A DNA stretch of 64,000 bases from the NCBI GenBank assembly GCA_050575255.1, contig JBNZDD010013725.1, forward strand, positions 10,370,221 to 10,434,220. Reading direction: 5' to 3'. The notes under the pieces are model-generated. The model was given only the letters and a program-made list of their open reading frames with translations, did not search any database and had not been told where the DNA came from. The position numbers were made by a program, and so were the translations under genes. Positions within the stretch are counted from its first letter, which is position 1, and every line of letters begins with the position of its first letter. The DNA comes from Harriotta raleighana. Taxonomy: Eukaryota. Shown here piece by piece: positions 30,952 through 48,319 of the stretch.

Positions 30952-31908
30952 CTGCAATGGGCCAGACACACAACAAACAGCACAATGTCATACCACTGGT
31001 GAGTTAATCACTCTACAAAGCATGCAGTTAGTTGATGCAGACATAGTGCTGAGGTCACACGCATCAATCTTCCGTACACAAACACTGGTGGTTTACACAT
31101 CAAACAGCCAATTCAGGCAGAAAACGACACATGCAATTTTAATATAAAACAGTCGTTATACAGGTGATCATTACTGTTGGCTCTAAATAAAAATATATTA
31201 ATATTTATGATCAAAGTATTTTTGCGCATGCATTTTACATACAGATCACTATTTAAATCCATCATCCACTTTCTCTATCACCAGACAAGCTTTTTTTTTT
31301 TTGGGGGGGGAGGGGGGCGAGGTTAGGTGCTTATTACTGCATGCGCAGTAAAAAGGAGCCAGTGTTCACATCTGGCCATTTGGGCTGCTTTTCTGGTGCA
31401 GTTTGAATGATGAATATATTCAAATAGTACAGCTGCTACTGGTAACACATGGGACTTTACAGCTCCCTGGCCTATTGAGTTGTACTACATACTGCACTCA
31501 ACGGTGTGGTGTTCACATTTCTAATGAAGGAGTTCACTAAATTATTCTTATTATTGTCACCAATGATTAGTTAGGAGGTCAGAAAATGTGCCACTAATTT
31601 GGAGGATTATTTTTTTTTGTGCAATGAAGAATCCTGAAAGGACATTAGCATTCTCCTGTAGTCTGGTTTGTCTCAGCCCGGTGAACCATAAGACAGAGGA
31701 ATTCTCGTCAGTCAACCACGCTTCCTACTGACCAAGACGATTCATTGACAGAACCTGAGACCTCAAAGGTCTCACATGTTCCAGTTGTGGATGCAAGTGG
31801 CTGATTCAGAAAGCCTCAGAAGGAATGGGAACAAGCTCTGAATCCTCGAATCCGGGACAGAAGGAATCTTTTTGGAGAGTTTGGGATTCCCAATTTGGGA
31901 AAATTACT

Positions 31909-34805: not shown

Positions 34806-34856
34806 CCTGTACTCTTCATCCTCATATCCAGAGACATCTAATCGGCTACTGGAGAC
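34806..34856 (-). CDS. KIF13A: KIF13A exon
   Basis: VSSSRLDVSGYEDEEYR resembles human VSSSRPDLSGFDEDDK; ttgtag|GTC and AGG|gtgtgt; 51 nt. Confidence 0.9.
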
Positions 34857-40105: not shown

Positions 40106-41779
40106 CAATTGACTGTTCATATACATCAACAGTCAATTTACTTGACAATAATTATCGCCCTAGGATAGGTTGATGTGATAAGGCACTGGATAGTAAATTC
40201 TTTATTCATCGTTTTCCTCAGCATGTGAAAGGCGCATTACAAATGTAATTTTGTTGTTGTTTGTGGTCAAATGGATTCTATATTTAAAAACATCCATTGT
40301 TTGTAGTCAGTTTTACATTTTGGTCACTTCCTCGATTTATCCCAACATATGACAGAAGCTTAGTATATGAACCAGTGAACAAATCAGAACTCCTTAAATC
40401 GCTACTAACATTCTCACAAATAGATTGAACTAAGGTCGAGGTGAACTCAAAATAAGATTCCATTTAAGTAAGGCAGTCAACATAGGTCTGCCAAAACATG
40501 AGCCAATGAATCTTTATCTACTTGCTAATTTGCATTGCCATCAATATATTCTCATTTCTCTGTATGAGTGGTCAGACTTTTGTCCCAACCTCTCTTTACA
40601 TTCCTGCCACGTTTCACAGTCCACTGACCAAGTTGCTGCTCTGATACCCTGGGACACTTGCTGAACACTGAATAGAATTGCACACAAGGGTTGCGGGCTA
40701 TCGTCCTATTGAGTTGTAAATTACCCACAGAACTCTATGTAACCTTCCCTTTTGGTTGGGTGACATGGTTCCCAATTACTGGGCTAATGAAATGTTCAGT
40801 GCATTTTGACCAGATCTGGAATGTTGCAGTCCTCCACCAGGAGATGCCAACGACTTCACACATCTGACAGAACAGCATGAATGTCAGCCTCTTATTATTG
40901 GCATTCAGTTGCAGGAGAAATCTTTCTGCATCTCTCAGAAAGACTCTTTGAAGGCTAGGGGATTGTCACACAAATTGATCAATGACAATGAAATTAATGA
41001 TAGTACTGAGTTAGCCATTTTAGCATAAACAGATGGAATGCTGAATAAAAAGGTGCGGTTTTCAGAAAAACATGTCCTTGCAAGTGAATTAGAATAGACT
41101 TCTAGCCAATAAAATCCTGTCTGAATCGAATCCAGTTTTAGACGACAGCAAGAATTCCTACTGCTTGTGTAACGTTTCACATTCTCTTTGGATCACTTAT
41201 TTGTAGATCAATTTGATATATTGATTAAATCCCTCAGCGTCTCAAATAGCCTCTGAGGCTTTGGTGAGGCATCCAGGCTGCAGCACTGAGGTTGCAAGGT
41301 TTTACTGCTGATTCTCGTGGTTGCTGCAACCAAATGCACTTATTTTGAGGCATACAAACATGGGAACAGGAGTCGGCCATTCATCCGCTACAAGCCAGTT
41401 CCGTCATTCGCTAATCTGTACCTGAACTCCAATTACCTGCCCTTGCCCCTTGATGCCCTGACCTAACAAATATCTATCGACCTTGGGGCAAATAACCAAA
41501 ACCCAATATAGACCACAGGGCAAAACCTTGGACACATGCCCAAGGTTTCTCCTTACTCCACATGCCTAAACATAATCCTTCAAAAAAAACAATGATAAAT
41601 TGATCATTTCAATCCAAGACTGTTTGTGAGACACTACTTTGCACAATTGGCTTCCACCTTTCGCCCACTCAATCCATTGGAGGCTGGGGAATCAATGAAG
41701 AATGGGGCTGATCCTCACATCTATGTAACCTGTTGTGGGACACGACATCAGCTGCAGAGTTCCAGATTGTCTTACATAT

Positions 41780-42115: not shown

Positions 42116-42432
42116 TTTGCCTCCCCATCCCCAAAAGGATCAAGTTCAGGATTCCTTTAATTCCCTCCACAGACTCACCCCACCCCGACTCCATGAGCTC
42201 CTCAATATTGGAATCTGAATCTACTGAACATTAAGAAGCTTCACTGCACAATATGTTGTAGTGCTTCCTATGGGTGTCTACTGTGTATTGCAGAAAACTA
42301 TAGAGATACGAAATCCGTCAGGCTGCGCTTGTGATTTTGAAAGGTGTCTGTATTGTTCGTTGGTAAAAAAAATATTTTGGAAAACAAGGCTTTGTCTTCT
42401 TACATTCTCCCCAGATATGAATTTTACTTGTC

Positions 42433-43647
42433 TCAATGCTGAAAACTAGAAAGGAACGATTTCTTCTCCTCCCCAGCAGAATGCTCCCTCTTTGCCTTGC
42501 ATTCTTTGGCCATGTGTCCTTCCTTTCCGCAGAGGTGGCAGATGTGCAGCCCTTCACATCTGTGTGGTCGCGTGGCTCTCTTGTCCGGTTTTTCTTTCCC
42601 TTTGGCACCACTCCTGGAAGTGGGAGGTGCTGGAGGTGGAGCTGGATTTTCCCCACAACCCATCATAAACTGCAGTTTCTCTAGTCTATCAAATTGATCC
42701 TTCTGGTTCAGAGCAAGTTTTTTCACTAAGAGAACGAGCTCACTTATTACAGGGTCTCCTACTGATTGGGGTTCAACCTCCGGCAGCTCAAGCACATCTC
42801 CCAAGCACTGATGACTATTCTGTGCATGCACCACTGTCTGGCCCTGATAGGGTAGTTTGAGTGTCTCTTTCTTCCGACTTGATGACGCTTGACTTTCACA
42901 TGCTGGATGTTCCGTCTTTGTTGGCCGAGTCTTGCCCACCGTCAGTTTTGGTTTTACAGATGGAGGTTTCTGATTGACTTCATACTCAGGCACTTCGCTC
43001 ATAAATTGCGCAGTCAGTTTGAAATCCTTGCGTGCAGATGAACGTTTGCTCTTCACTCTCGCTTTAAAAGTCCTTAACACCGAATGCACAGCATACAAGG
43101 TTTTCATTTCATTTGGCTGCTTAAATTTTTCATAAAACTCAGCCGCGGGATCCAGTGGTAGTTCAGAGCCTATGTATTCTGCTCGGAGTCTCTCAAAAAC
43201 CCCCTCGGGACTTTGCTCCTTTCGTGGCAAATTATGAACCAATATCTTTGCTCTGCCTCCGAGACGGTGCATGACAGTTGCAAATTGGAGCGTTGTAGAC
43301 ATTGAGCTAGTGTCCAGGAACCATTGCATATCCTTTATCCAGTCTTCAACGTCAAGTCTATAATCTGGGGCTCCAGTGAACACTGGCACACTCATTAACT
43401 GATTGTAGGGGATCACTGTAGTACACGGTGTCAATGATAAAGCGTCTGATTGACAGCTGGCCCCTGGAGATGACTGCTTAGAAGTGGATTGGCTGTCAAT
43501 TATTGATGGCATCCAATGGACTTCAGTTATGTGACTGCTTGCCTCCACTGGCTCAGCAAGCTTCTTTCTCTGAGGGATAGACACGAGTAAAGCATTCAAC
43601 TGGTTTATCAGCCAGGGTATCTGGATATGATGGCCTGGGTTTTCCAT
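42433..43647 (-). CDS. Intact Ty3/gypsy-derived Gag-like (PNMA/Arc-type capsid) protein with CCHC zinc knuckle, 404 aa, nested in a KIF13A intron
   Basis: Capsid-like motifs VPVFTG..DVEDWIKDM..RLGGRAKILV.NLP..PEGVFERLRAEY..AEFYEKFKQPNE..YA and KDFKLTAQFM; a coiled-coil-like segment (ISELVLLVKKLALNQKDQFDRLEKLQ); CHLCGKEGHMAKEC = CX2CX4HX4C. Open over 1215 nt in non-repetitive sequence. Confidence 0.85.
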   Translation of the reverse strand: MENPGHHIQIPWLINQLNALLVSIPQRKKLAEPVEASSHITEVHWMPSIIDSQSTSKQSSPGASCQSDALSLTPCTTVIPYNQLMSVPVFTGAPDYRLDVEDWIKDMQWFLDTSSMSTTLQFATVMHRLGGRAKILVHNLPRKEQSPEGVFERLRAEYIGSELPLDPAAEFYEKFKQPNEMKTLYAVHSVLRTFKARVKSKRSSARKDFKLTAQFMSEVPEYEVNQKPPSVKPKLTVGKTRPTKTEHPACESQASSSRKKETLKLPYQGQTVVHAQNSHQCLGDVLELPEVEPQSVGDPVISELVLLVKKLALNQKDQFDRLEKLQFMMGCGENPAPPPAPPTSRSGAKGKEKPDKRATRPHRCEGLHICHLCGKEGHMAKECKAKREHSAGEEKKSFLSSFQH

Positions 43648-45704
43648 CTACAAAAATCATGCTCTGTATTGTAACTGACGTACAACAATTGATAATAGGT
43701 TCTGCTAGTTTCCCTATATGTTTCCAACTGAAGGCTATTCCTGACTCCTTCACCCTCTCCTCAATCCCCAGCACAGATACAATGGGCTGACTGGACTCCT
43801 ATAGTGTAAGCTTCCATCTCTACTTCTAGTTTACACAACTACCAACCACACCTTTCGATCTCTCTGTTAAATACTGTTAACTGCTTATAAACGTATAAGC
43901 AAACACATGCAGGTATTTACACAGGGTGAATCAGAAGCCCTTACTCAAGAGTTTTTAATCGTCATTTATGTACTAAAAGTCAACATTTGTAGAGCGAGTG
44001 CAGCGATTACGGGAAATATCTTTCATTGCTTTTACTGTGACATTTTTGTACCAAGTTGATATGTGTAAATGTCTACAAAACATGCAATTTGAACATCTCA
44101 TATAGACCTATGAGTAGGGACTTTTGATTCAACCTGTAGATGGGTGTCTTCTTGACATAAAAAGCGCTATACAAATGTAATTTTGTTGCTGTTGTAATTT
44201 GCAATGTTTCCGAATAGATTTCTTAATAAATGTGTAATTACCAATTTTTCATAAGTTATTGTACTACTAAAAATAGGCAGACTTAATAAATTTAATAATG
44301 ACAGATTTCATAAGACATAGGTTAATGCATACCAAACGTTAAAGGCTATTTCTAAATTAAAAGCATATCTTTATATTACAGGCATGAGCTAAAAAGCAGT
44401 CATCTTGTAAGGACACAGTTTTATTGCTCTTTCCTTAAACAACGGTCTTGTCAGTGAGTAATAAATCACATACTTAACTGCTCACCCACAGCAATGAACG
44501 CTTTCATTATTTTTACTGTACAAAGGCCAAGGTGAATGCTTCTATTTAAGATCAATGTTAGCATTGGGAAATGGGCTGCTCCTTATTTCAAGCATCTAGT
44601 GGCAGCACTAGGTGTCTCCAGGTCAGGTACAGGACTGTAGGATTTAGGAGAAAGCTGCTTCTATTCCACGAGGACAGCATTTTATGTGAAAGATCAGCAG
44701 AGCGCTTAATACTGTACCATGTGATACGCTGCGGCCGCTCTGAATTCAAGACAGTTTTTTGCTGCAATTCCATGGCCTAGTTGAATGTGCCAGCCTGTGA
44801 TAGCTAACAGTCAAAGAGAACTTCCATCCAAGGTATCTGGGCTAGAGTGGAACCCAGCTACCAAAGGTGTCTGCACTTGATCTCACTCAGTCTTTCCCCC
44901 ATTTCTGCTCTCTTACCAAACCACCCTTCAGGTCTAAGCCTGAAACATAATGATATCCACGTAAATTGAACACCATGTGATGCCACATTTAATTCCCATT
45001 CTGTGTATCAAAGCGAAACATGTGATAGTTGCTAGACTTCAACCAAAGTCTTTAGCAAGAACATTAAAACACTGCGTATGTTTTAAAGATTTTGATCCAA
45101 CGTTTATATGTTTAAGAAACCAAACATCATAAAGAGCAGGTAGGTATCTGTTGCTGCAGCTCAGCAGAGAGAATGACAGAAGGTGTAATTTTGAGCTTGT
45201 GTAAGCCATGTGCAAACTGAATTACAGATGTACTTAATTATATAAATCAACCAATAAACAGCTTTCCGTGTCTCCTAATATTTCTGCATTGGTTGTAACT
45301 GCATAATTAAACACACTTGCAATTGGCTCTGTGCACATGCTTTACACATGGTTAACAAACCTAAGAATTAAGACTCAAAAGGAGAGCGAATAATAGCTGA
45401 ACAAACTGATTGTTTTCTAAAAATAAGCAGAAAACATTAAAAGCTACAACCAAAACACTTAAATATTCTGTGACAATGCTATCACTATTCTACACACAAC
45501 AAACATTATGTACCAAACCCATGCAACATGACCACATTGGCATGTTTTACAATAAATGGAAAGCATAGACAATTTATTGTAACACTTGGTGGGTGGGAGA
45601 CATGTGGAGTTAATTTTTTTTAAAACGGTATCATTTGTATTTTCATTGCTGCAGAAATAGAGATTCAATACATGGGTTGTGCAAATCAAAAACATATGTT
45701 CATA

Positions 45705-46528
45705 CAGTAAAACCCCGTTTATCCGGCACCCACGGGCTCTGGCCAGTGGCGATTAAACGTTTTTTTCTGGTTGAATGGATTTAAAAATATATATTTTCTG
45801 AATATAATTAAAAATTATTTTAACACATACCATATTAATAATAGACTAAATAATAACAGAATATTCTATTAGTATATTATTATTTATACTTAACTTTGCA
45901 ATCACTGCACTGATTCGACGGAGGTAAAACAAAATGTGACTTGAAAAACCAATGAGTTCAGACCTAATGGCTAGCATACACACACACACACACACATAGA
46001 CAGACACACACAGACCCTCAAAGATATTCAGTCTGAATCCATCATGTAAATTCTGTCCACAATCCTCACCACCCCCCTCCCTTTCCTCTCTCTCCCTGCC
46101 TCTCTCTCTCTCTCTCTCTGCATCAATCTGCCTGCCATTACTCTCTCTCTCTCTCGCTCTATTTTGCTTTCCCTCATCTCAGCCTCAGAGAGAGAGAGAC
46201 TGAGAGAGTGATTGTGATTGGGAGAGAGAGAGAGAGAGAGAGAGACTGTGATTGGGGTAGAGAGAGAGACTGCGAGAGAGTCTGAGAGAGAGACTGTGAT
46301 TGGGGGAGAGAGAGAGAGAGACACGCCCCCTTTGGAGCCCATGCTCCAACTCATGCGAAAGAGGTATTAAAAAAACGCGACTTTTAAAAAGACCTGGAAA
46401 GAGTTTAGACCCAACATTAAATGCGTCACCGGATAACTTCCGGTTAATCAAATCGGGACTTTTTTTTGGAGATGGCAGTTGAACGGATTTTCAGATTATT
46501 CGAGTCACGGATAAACAAGGTTTTACTA
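45705..46528. mobile_element. Tigger/pogo-like MITE of the same family, inverted relative to 34966-35840
   Basis: TA|cagtaaaaccccgtttatcc ... ggataaacaaggttttacta|TA. Subterminal blocks are the reverse complement of those in the 34966 copy; internal (GA)/(CT) repeats. Confidence 0.85.
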
Positions 46529-46969
46529 TAGTTGGTTTGATACCTTTTGGTGGATGTGCCTGTGCCTGTATGTAAGGTACAAACAACCATTTGGTTATGA
46601 AACCATTTTGTTTTAATGCATCTAGAGATGGAAACTTGACTAGTATTTGTGATCAGAAGCTTTTTGTTTAAATCAAATCAGTCAGAACACAGTGAATACA
46701 TGACAAGTTGGAAATTAAAGCAGCTAGTTCCTGTTCATGCATGCATCAAGCCAAGGCCAGCATGGAGTCAGAGCTGAAGAACACAGGCATATAAATATAT
46801 GTATACAGGTATATAGTATGTATGTGAAAGAGCACTGAAATCAAAGCACTAACATTCATCTGCACATCACACTGCCAGCCAACCCACATTAAGAAAAAAA
46901 ATTGATCTCAATTAACAGGTCTAGACCAGAAAACCATCTAAATAAATCAACAGTTATGAATTTGGTCCA

Positions 46970-47240
46970 TGACTTCCTATCTCCTTACCAACCTACATGC
47001 CCCTTCCGTTCAGTAGGCTCTGGCCTGCTCCATATCCCCCAACCCACCTGCCCAACTATTGGTGGGCGAGCCTTCAGTCACTCTGACTCTGGGACTCCAT
47101 CCTGAAGACCCTCCACCTCACCCTTTCCCTGGCCTCCTTCAAGTCTTGCCTCAAGACTCCTCTTCGATGGATCCACTGGCAACTCTCCCCCACTCTGACG
47201 TGAAAGGCACTATGCAAATGTAATTTTGTTGTTGCTGTTT
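46970..47240 (+). mobile_element. L2 LINE 3' fragment
   Basis: LSPYQPTCPFRS..PTIGGRAFS remnant plus tail. Confidence 0.75.
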
Positions 47241-48241
47241 TTGTTCTTTACATTGCCTCTACAGTGATAATCAGCTAAAGATTTGACACACTGGTTTTCA
47301 CCCTAGGTTTAATGAGCATGCGTTAATCATCAAAACAAATTTGTGCCCAATATTTCGTTACATCTTTCACCAGCAAAGTGGAACCTTATCTCTTTCATAC
47401 CTCGGCAAAGAGGGCAATTAACTATTTGGGAAAAAAATTCTATAGTCTGAAAGTTACGCCAACAAAATCCCAAATTCAGCAAAATAGCAGGTCTATTTAC
47501 TGCCTGCCCTTATTTGGGAGTTACTATTATCAAGAACCAGTTCGTTAGGTAGAAAACCTTTAGTCACTTTTATGGTAGAGGTTCTCTGCTAAAAGCACTA
47601 GCTCAAGACAATAGTAAGAGACTGACAAACCGTAGAGTGGTCATTGTAGGAATAGACTTTATAGTTTTCATGGGTGAACTAACAGCAAAAATTCAGATAG
47701 AAAATTCTGGGAAAGCAGAATAAACAGTAAAACTTTGTAAACTAAAAGTCAAGATTCTAATTTATCACTAAAATACTCACAATTTTAACTCTACAGTTGC
47801 TTTACTTTTTCAACAATTGGTTCAAAACTATACCAAAAAATGAAATGTGGAGGTTAGTTTAAAAATATATATATATACTGTTTATATATATTTTTAAACA
47901 GGGTGCTCTTTGTTTTTGGGGGAAAAAAGATGCAGTTCATTCAATTAACTAGTTTACACTGGAGCCCTATAATTTAAGAGGCTACATATGCATTCAAAAA
48001 TAGTGATATTATAGTTGAACATGCTTTATACTGGAGTACTTCCAACACCTCAGAAATCAGGGTGAAATCCTGGAGTATTCCAATGAGAATCACATCAGCT
48101 TGCAAACATTTGATTTTAAAAAATGTAAGTAAACATCAATATTGATTTGTTTTTGTGATGCCACAATCTGAATTGATATTATTCACACAGAATGGTGCAC
48201 TGTAGGGTCTGTGAAGCTGATTTGTGTTAATTGGTACGTAC

Positions 48242-48319
48242 ATGGTGGACATTAGGTGTGCTGATACTCCTCTTCATATGCCTTCCTTTAGATGAAAGTG
48301 CTTCTTTGACTGTGACTGC
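48242..48319 (-). CDS. KIF13A: KIF13A exon
   Basis: AVTVKEALSSKGRHMKRSISTPNVHH resembles human AVTVKEALSTKARHIRRSLSTPNVHN; cttag|GCA and CAT|gtacgt; phase 0/0. Confidence 0.95.

Follow-up and report, generated by a model that had tools for sequence, protein, structure and literature searches.

A probable kinesin-Gag isoform of KIF13A in cartilaginous fishes, with a Gag-derived exon as its predicted ending

Background

Can a kinesin motor end in a Gag protein of a retrotransposon? The question is raised by a window of 64,000 nucleotides from the chimaera Harriotta raleighana (GenBank assembly GCA_050575255.1, contig JBNZDD010013725.1, positions 10,370,221 to 10,434,220 of the forward strand), in which a gag-like open reading frame (ORF) lies inside an intron of the kinesin-3 gene KIF13A. 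A first-pass annotation of this window proposed that the preceding KIF13A exon could be spliced in frame to an AG placed directly before the ATG of this ORF. The Ser-rich and CAP-Gly tail of the kinesin would thereby be replaced by a capsid and a zinc knuckle, and the product might carry RNA or capsids. All positions below are those of the window.

With moderate confidence we favor a modified version of this proposal. A gag exon in sense orientation, conserved between chimaeras and a shark, likely serves as an alternative last exon of KIF13A, spliced in at a CAG at 43572-43570, and the resulting tail would be a cargo-binding module, not a shell.

Results

The Gag frame within KIF13A

KIF13A is the host gene on the minus strand, where 19 canonical exons were mapped from 63854 to 22501. 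The big canonical tail exon is 90% identical to that of elephant shark KIF13A and 71-73% identical to those of two sharks. The Gag frame sits in sense in a 13.4-kb intron, flanked by the exon that ends at 48242 and the one that starts at 34856. The ORF (43647-42433, minus strand) encodes 404 residues. The landmarks reported at first pass are all in place: the AG at 43649-43648, the ATG at 43647-43645 with an in-frame TAG directly before it, the upstream exon 48319-48242 ending in phase 0 with a GTACGT donor, and the two downstream poly(A) signals, ATTAAA at 42161-42156 and AATAAA at 40206-40201. The second of these signals is the weaker candidate because it abuts, at 40206, a copy of the dispersed repeat family D4 (40208-40263). 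At the stop frequency of the intron, 378 open codons have a chance probability of about 1e-9. The two codons after the stop of the window read DK, which are the C-terminal two residues of the homologous sawshark protein and of a further homolog, P0214.

Fused proteins in public gene models

A search for longer proteins containing the Gag frame gave two matches among 3448 candidates, and both are KIF13A proteins without CAP-Gly. The elephant shark protein (UniRef A0A4W3IBK6) has 1708 residues, and its Gag exon is 79-80% identical to that of the window. The sawshark protein, KIF13A isoform X2 (P0002), has 1764 residues and a Gag tail with 49-51% identity. Sawshark isoform X1 (P0123, 1775 residues) belongs to the same cluster as the fused protein. 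The three annotated proteins (P0001, P0002 and P0123) all read STPNVHH followed by RKKLAE or KKKLAE. This junction, common to elephant shark and sawshark, maps to an exon start at 43569 in the window, and two annotation pipelines agree on it. Canonical and Gag-ending isoforms use the same phase-0 donor after 48242. The fused proteins retain the motor, FHA, KIF1B and DUF3694 families; Pfam recognizes no capsid family in them, and they are recorded under the plain name KIF13A.

Thus an in-frame kinesin-Gag fusion from the proposed donor is annotated in two cartilaginous fishes, and it ends in the Gag exon without CAP-Gly. The junction is a different one: none of the three proteins contains the MENPG of the predicted STPNVHH-MENPGHH. 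A kinesin-Gag isoform with the junction corrected in this way is probable.

The canonical isoform is kept beside the Gag ending, with canonical exons intact in the window and both forms recorded for elephant shark. A third, short KIF13A ending without CAP-Gly is known from sharks, rays and sturgeon, and its exons are present in the window too. KIF13A isoforms of about 1548 residues were considered as fused forms and rejected, as they carry this different short ending. No further fused isoform was found among the listed members of the shark, ray, coelacanth and sturgeon clusters, the large ones being represented by 15 of 47, 25, 21 and 25 members.

Several observations on isoform records are worth adding. 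KIF13A isoform numbers follow length in most listed species; by this rule, sawshark may have the fused form as its longest annotated KIF13A. Either the fused form dominates there, or the gene model of P0123 and P0002 lacks the CAP-Gly exons. Sawfish isoforms X5 and X6 are not among the members listed; their numbering implies 1548-1974 residues, the range of the fused form. CAP-Gly itself was found in KIF13A of the window, sharks, birds, turtles, amphibians and marsupials, while a review assigns this domain to KIF13B as its mark (PMC9081326).

The acceptor of the Gag exon

The candidate acceptors were compared using a weight matrix derived from 18 KIF13A acceptors of the window, a small set that makes the scores relative only. 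With each left out in turn, the true acceptors score from -0.9 to 12.4. The acceptor at 43569 scores 5.6 and ranks sixth among the 930 AGs of the intron; its pyrimidine fraction is 0.76, and 30 nucleotides are free of AG. It lies 78 bases past the ATG of the site proposed at first pass. That upstream AG/ATG site, which had been described as a U-rich 3' splice site, is a poor acceptor with a score of -6.1 (rank 351 of 930, below all 18 true acceptors), a pyrimidine fraction of 0.47 and a second AG 14 nucleotides upstream. Tandem acceptors at 43567 and 43563 were rejected with scores of -0.6 and -6.1.

Conservation points to the same inner site. Chimaera and sawshark are identical in 15 of the first 19 residues after it, all of which precede the first Met of the chimaera exon. 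Within the first 80 exon residues no Met position is common to the window, elephant shark and sawshark, which fits translation from upstream. The 26-residue leader between the two sites has no match among the 303 gathered proteins. A frame open for 26 codons above the inner acceptor has a probability of 0.25. The probability of a TAG followed directly by an ATG at the upstream end of the frame is about 0.005 (0.224 x 0.020, uncorrected for other eye-catching patterns), so a minor acceptor or a separate start at this place is conceivable. Given the gene models, the strength of the site and the conservation, we consider it quite likely that the Gag exon is spliced in at 43569.

The anatomy of the Gag tail

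The structure of the exon protein was predicted by AlphaFold2 using 44 aligned sequences; the predicted local distance difference test (pLDDT) values are given in Table 1. The N-terminal capsid lobe superimposes on residues 9-87 of the PNMA2 capsid (8rb3_A) with a Z-score of 9.7 and a root-mean-square deviation of 2.2 over 74 aligned residues. The top 21 rows of the structural matches contain nothing but capsid or Arc-type domains; after PNMA2 come those of Arc, dArc, Copia, PEG10 and Ty3. Foldseek alone also puts PNMA2 on top (E 0.022). A sequence search of solved structures matched only the knuckle.

The C-terminal lobe appears worn. In a control Gag of an element (P0215) both lobes are predicted with pLDDT of 84-98, and the first lobe scores alike in control and exon. 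The alignment to PNMA2 covers 173 columns for the control versus 127 for the exon protein; the scores of the control are raised because it is closer to its alignment. When regions are compared across the four host copies (window, elephant shark, sawshark and P0214), the same picture emerges. In the first lobe, identity between the chimaeras and the other two copies is 0.60, and among element Gags 0.51; host lobes are about 43% identical to those of element Gags. At the end of the second lobe the corresponding values are 0.38 and 0.52, and host copies share only 0.23 with element Gags. In the long helix, identity is 0.59 among the four host copies and 0.23 among element Gags. These values suggest that the N-terminal lobe has been kept, the shell-closing half has decayed, and the helix is newly constrained.

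The proposed capsid with a zinc knuckle therefore stands in part: the N-terminal lobe is intact and the knuckle is recognized here (PF00098), while the C-terminal lobe is worn and one of the four copies lacks the knuckle pattern. A prediction of helix self-association, run without an alignment, scored 0.06 and gives no answer either way. The formation of a shell by the tail is unlikely on the predicted structure, since the second capsid lobe is worn.

The origin of the exon

A HMMER search over 1.84 billion representative sequences yielded 77 matches, 14 of them at E<=1e-30. After the elephant shark protein come P0214 (308 residues, 41%) and then Gag-like proteins, three of which are named from coelacanth, medaka and sea urchin. 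Among 41 Gag-like matches scanned, 19 have PNMA (E<=0.01; 5 above the cut-off), 27 zf-CCHC and one an integrase zinc domain. The homology to element Gags spans the capsid, the helix and the knuckle. The exon protein itself has no direct Pfam match to PNMA or Retrotrans_gag; in a protein atlas, Retrotrans_gag clusters with it at 0.94 but with 124 of 256 shared features, which is a lead only. PNMA stems from Ty3/Gypsy elements (PMC8321522).

A quick tree was made by IQ-TREE from 59 rows (55 of the 75 other matches were kept and 20 left out for short cover). In it, the four host copies form one clade on a long stem, with a support of 100 in the Shimodaira-Hasegawa-like approximate likelihood ratio test (SH-aLRT). 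The clade splits into window with elephant shark versus sawshark with P0214, as the hosts do. A gap of two residues in the second lobe is common to all four copies, and 42 of the 55 element Gags lack it (12 others unread, one unclear). The fourth copy, P0214, comes from a 1,504-base contig, has a branch of 0.61 and has lost the knuckle pattern. A coelacanth Gag (P0228/P0292) was rejected as an orthologue: its contig differs from that of KIF13A (188 vs 384 Mb), and it is outside the clade.

Searches of the genome with the exon protein and with the closest element Gag each returned one match, this locus, which is a lower bound with 9 and 4 candidates scored, respectively. A search of the genome with the PNMA family had no match, and its controls were equally silent. 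None of the 46 frames scanned, a part of those on the minus strand, matches a pol family. Comparison of 90 relatives with the window gave no match outside the ORF. The 20 largest of the 23 repeat families include no long direct repeat that would bracket the ORF, although old long terminal repeats would escape.

The exon is a single, old and domesticated gag gene of a PNMA-like Gypsy retrotransposon. In the terms of the co-option criterion of Wang and Han (2021), it is joined to the same KIF13A exon in chimaera and shark, and its tree follows the hosts.

One sea urchin protein of the same Gag family (P0258, XP_011670048.1, LOC100890728) has CAP-Gly at residues 90-157 and a PNMA-like Gag at 287-408. 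As it is a single member, it could reflect an annotation chimera, or else a second case of this Gag joined to a domain that binds microtubules.

Table 1. Features of the KIF13A locus and of the Gag-derived exon in the window (residues are those of the exon protein)
Feature	Position	Strand	Basis or remark
KIF13A exon ending ...STPNVHH	48242..48319	-	78 nt, reads AVTVKEALSSKGRHMKRSISTPNVHH, then GTACGT; phase-0 donor
AG/ATG with 26-codon leader MENPG...SIPQ	43570..43649	-	likely intron open in frame; possibly minor acceptor or separate start
Pyrimidine tract and CAG (43572-43570), likely true acceptor of Gag exon	43570..43592	-	gene-model junction; score 5.6
Gag-derived coding exon, predicted alternative last exon	42433..43569	-	378 residues and TGA; homology to elephant shark and sawshark tails
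Capsid N-terminal lobe, residues 61-135	43165..43389	-	pLDDT 92-97
Worn capsid C-terminal lobe, residues 136-215	42925..43164	-	pLDDT 54-76; last helices not predicted; basic (17 K+R, 9 D+E)
Long helix, residues 273-304	42658..42753	-	pLDDT 85-94; identity 0.59 vs 0.23
CCHC zinc knuckle, residues 344-357	42499..42540	-	PF00098, 23.3 bits, cut-off 20.8
ATTAAA, best poly(A) candidate	42156..42161	-	272 nt after stop
AATAAA, weaker poly(A) candidate	40201..40206	-	adjoins dispersed repeat
Next canonical KIF13A exon (VSNSR...), competing acceptor	34806..34856	-	gene-model comparison, acceptor scoring
Exons of third, short KIF13A ending (~1548 residues in total)	30954-30829 and 29174-29148	-	match to cartilaginous-fish and sturgeon isoforms
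Last two canonical exons, Ser-rich region and CAP-Gly	26804-25619 and 22775-about 22501	-	would be replaced by Gag ending

Evidence against and alternative explanations

Several facts weigh against a Gag-ending KIF13A isoform with a functional tail. The fused gene models are automatic annotation; alternative isoforms of such annotation pipelines rest, as a rule, on RNA evidence. For the window, splicing into the Gag exon is predicted from gene models and sequence. The Gag tail occurs in 3 of 208 KIF13A proteins (two species), a count biased by the fact that these proteins were mostly gathered by likeness to the canonical exon and that clusters were listed partly. The RefSeq isoforms of elephant shark among those listed (n=4) are all canonical, which suggests low or tissue-limited use of the Gag ending. 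Five other AGs of the intron outscore the acceptor at 43569. The knuckle pattern is present in three of the four host copies and absent in P0214. The Gag exon also diverges faster than the canonical big exon, with 80% versus 90% identity to elephant shark, and its 51% to sawshark compares with 71-73% for the big exon in two other sharks.

The alternative that survives best is that the frame chiefly serves as a nested gene of its own, read from the ATG at 43647, with AG/ATG as the acceptor of a non-coding first exon and the fused models as minor products or pipeline joins. The rarity of a TAG directly before an ATG speaks for it, as do the long leaders ahead of the capsid in element Gags of the PNMA-like family, the record of P0214 as a free protein, and the canonical RefSeq isoforms just mentioned. 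However, two pipelines picked the same inner acceptor, conservation is high from the first residue past it, and P0214, which starts within the capsid lobe, looks truncated. No free-standing homolog of similar length was found among 2707 candidates, a weak search since P0214 was missed too. We regard a mainly separate gene as improbable.

The fused motor could also be a defense factor, whose capsid lobe binds or co-assembles with related retroelement capsids and spoils or removes them, like endogenized capsid-domain restriction factors. Drt2 is built as a lone capsid domain, according to the title of its structure entry; KIF13A traffic is used by viruses (PMC9081326), and the faster divergence of the Gag exon would fit a conflict. 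But the two genome searches, with 9 and 4 candidates scored, revealed no related element beyond the locus itself, and the lobe has diverged far from element Gags (about 43%, as given above). This role seems quite improbable to us.

Even less credit is due to the idea that the exon only cuts off the CAP-Gly tail and that its Gag content is a passenger. KIF13A does have another short ending without CAP-Gly in sharks, rays, sturgeon and the window. Yet an early stop would suffice for this purpose, whereas the frame is open for 378 codons and its conservation is domain-specific (0.60 in the lobe and 0.59 in the helix versus 0.38 in the eroded part). Least probable of all is AG 43649-43648 as the main acceptor: its phase fits and the frame is open, but the site scores below every true acceptor, its junction is absent from all annotated fused proteins, and its leader has no match.

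Discussion

The proposed fused motor

Under the reading that we prefer, a Gag exon spliced at 43569, the donor at 48242 would choose among three endings: the CAP-Gly tail (acceptor 34856), the short ending near 30954/29174 and the Gag exon, whose transcript would end near the ATTAAA at 42161. The fused motor would have about 1,770 residues, keeping the motor, FHA and kinesin-3 stalk families and losing about 590 residues including CAP-Gly. More tentatively, the lone N-terminal lobe might bind a partner protein, as the N-lobe of Arc binds peptides (PMC7941041; structure entry 4x3h), the helix might bring the two tails of a dimeric motor into a bundle, and RNA might be held by the basic segment together with the knuckle. 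Such an isoform would move a different cargo, likely a particle of protein and RNA, in a restricted range of tissues.

The predicted structure makes a cargo adaptor the likely role of the Gag tail, with RNA binding as a secondary option, because the worn second lobe argues against shells and a lone lobe can bind peptides, as in Arc. The carriage of RNA or capsids suggested at first pass is at most a possibility, since the N-terminal lobe alone is intact and one copy in four lacks the knuckle pattern. A bolder version, which we find rather unlikely, is that since before the chimaera-shark split a cartilaginous-fish kinesin with a built-in Gag adaptor has loaded RNA particles or retroelement-like capsids onto a plus-end motor, so that a single polypeptide performs a task for which viruses hijack kinesins.

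Should the isoform be produced, few gag domestications in vertebrates would be older; chimaeras and sharks split roughly 400 million years ago. The isoform would offer a natural test of the role of a single capsid lobe once shell building has been lost, and of a motor gaining new cargo through exon capture.

Comparison with known systems

Consistent with the first-pass statement that no example was described, the literature covered, which mostly excludes subscription papers, gave no KIF13A-Gag or kinesin-Gag isoform, no transposon fusion with a cytoskeletal motor domain and no co-opted gag of cartilaginous fishes. Elephant shark is among the genomes screened by Wang and Han (2021) according to their supplement (PMC8321522); KIF, kinesin and shark are absent from the main text of that paper, and KIF13A and kinesin from one supplement. 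The main text of Henriques et al. (2024; PMC11011659) mentions neither KIF nor shark.

The fused proteins share the motor, FHA and stalk families with canonical KIF13A of the kinesin-3 family. The KIF13A review (PMC9081326) places cargo and AP-1 binding in the tail, which the Gag exon would largely replace, and none of the five human isoforms described there has a Gag tail.

Solved shells of PNMA2 and dArc have both lobes, whereas the Gag tail of KIF13A has one intact lobe and forms the end of a kinesin. The PNMA family, Arc, dArc and PEG10 are free-standing genes, and SCAN belongs constitutively to a large family of transcription factors and derives from the other capsid lobe. The former are domesticated metaviral capsid genes (Henriques et al. 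2024) with the same capsid fold as the exon, PNMA2 being its top structural match. The SCAN domain of zinc-finger proteins resembles the exon in that it, too, is a Gypsy gag fragment that became attached to a host protein (PMC11011659; Crtg7 in PMC8321522).

Closer in kind are Crtg10-KELP of plants and Crtg14-PEX14 of fungi, in which a host gene has been joined to a co-opted gag from a long-terminal-repeat (LTR) element (Wang and Han 2021, PMC8321522); unlike KIF13A-Gag, these are non-animal and have Copia and Bel-Pao sources. Among host-transposon fusions, Lyosin (MYL4 with a LINE-1 ORF1 exon), NUP42-L1 and USP4-L1 (Kitao et al. 2025, PMC12129022) show the same arrangement, an ancient RNA-binding gene of a retrotransposon serving as an alternative first or last coding exon beside a canonical isoform, and fusions of this type have been lost in some lineages. 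They differ in using LINE-1 ORF1, the only gene covered by that screen, in place of an LTR-element gag, and in their hosts, a myosin light chain, a nucleoporin and a protease, none of which has a motor domain. Host-transposon fusion isoforms have been described with LINE-1 ORF1 and, in organisms other than animals, with gag.

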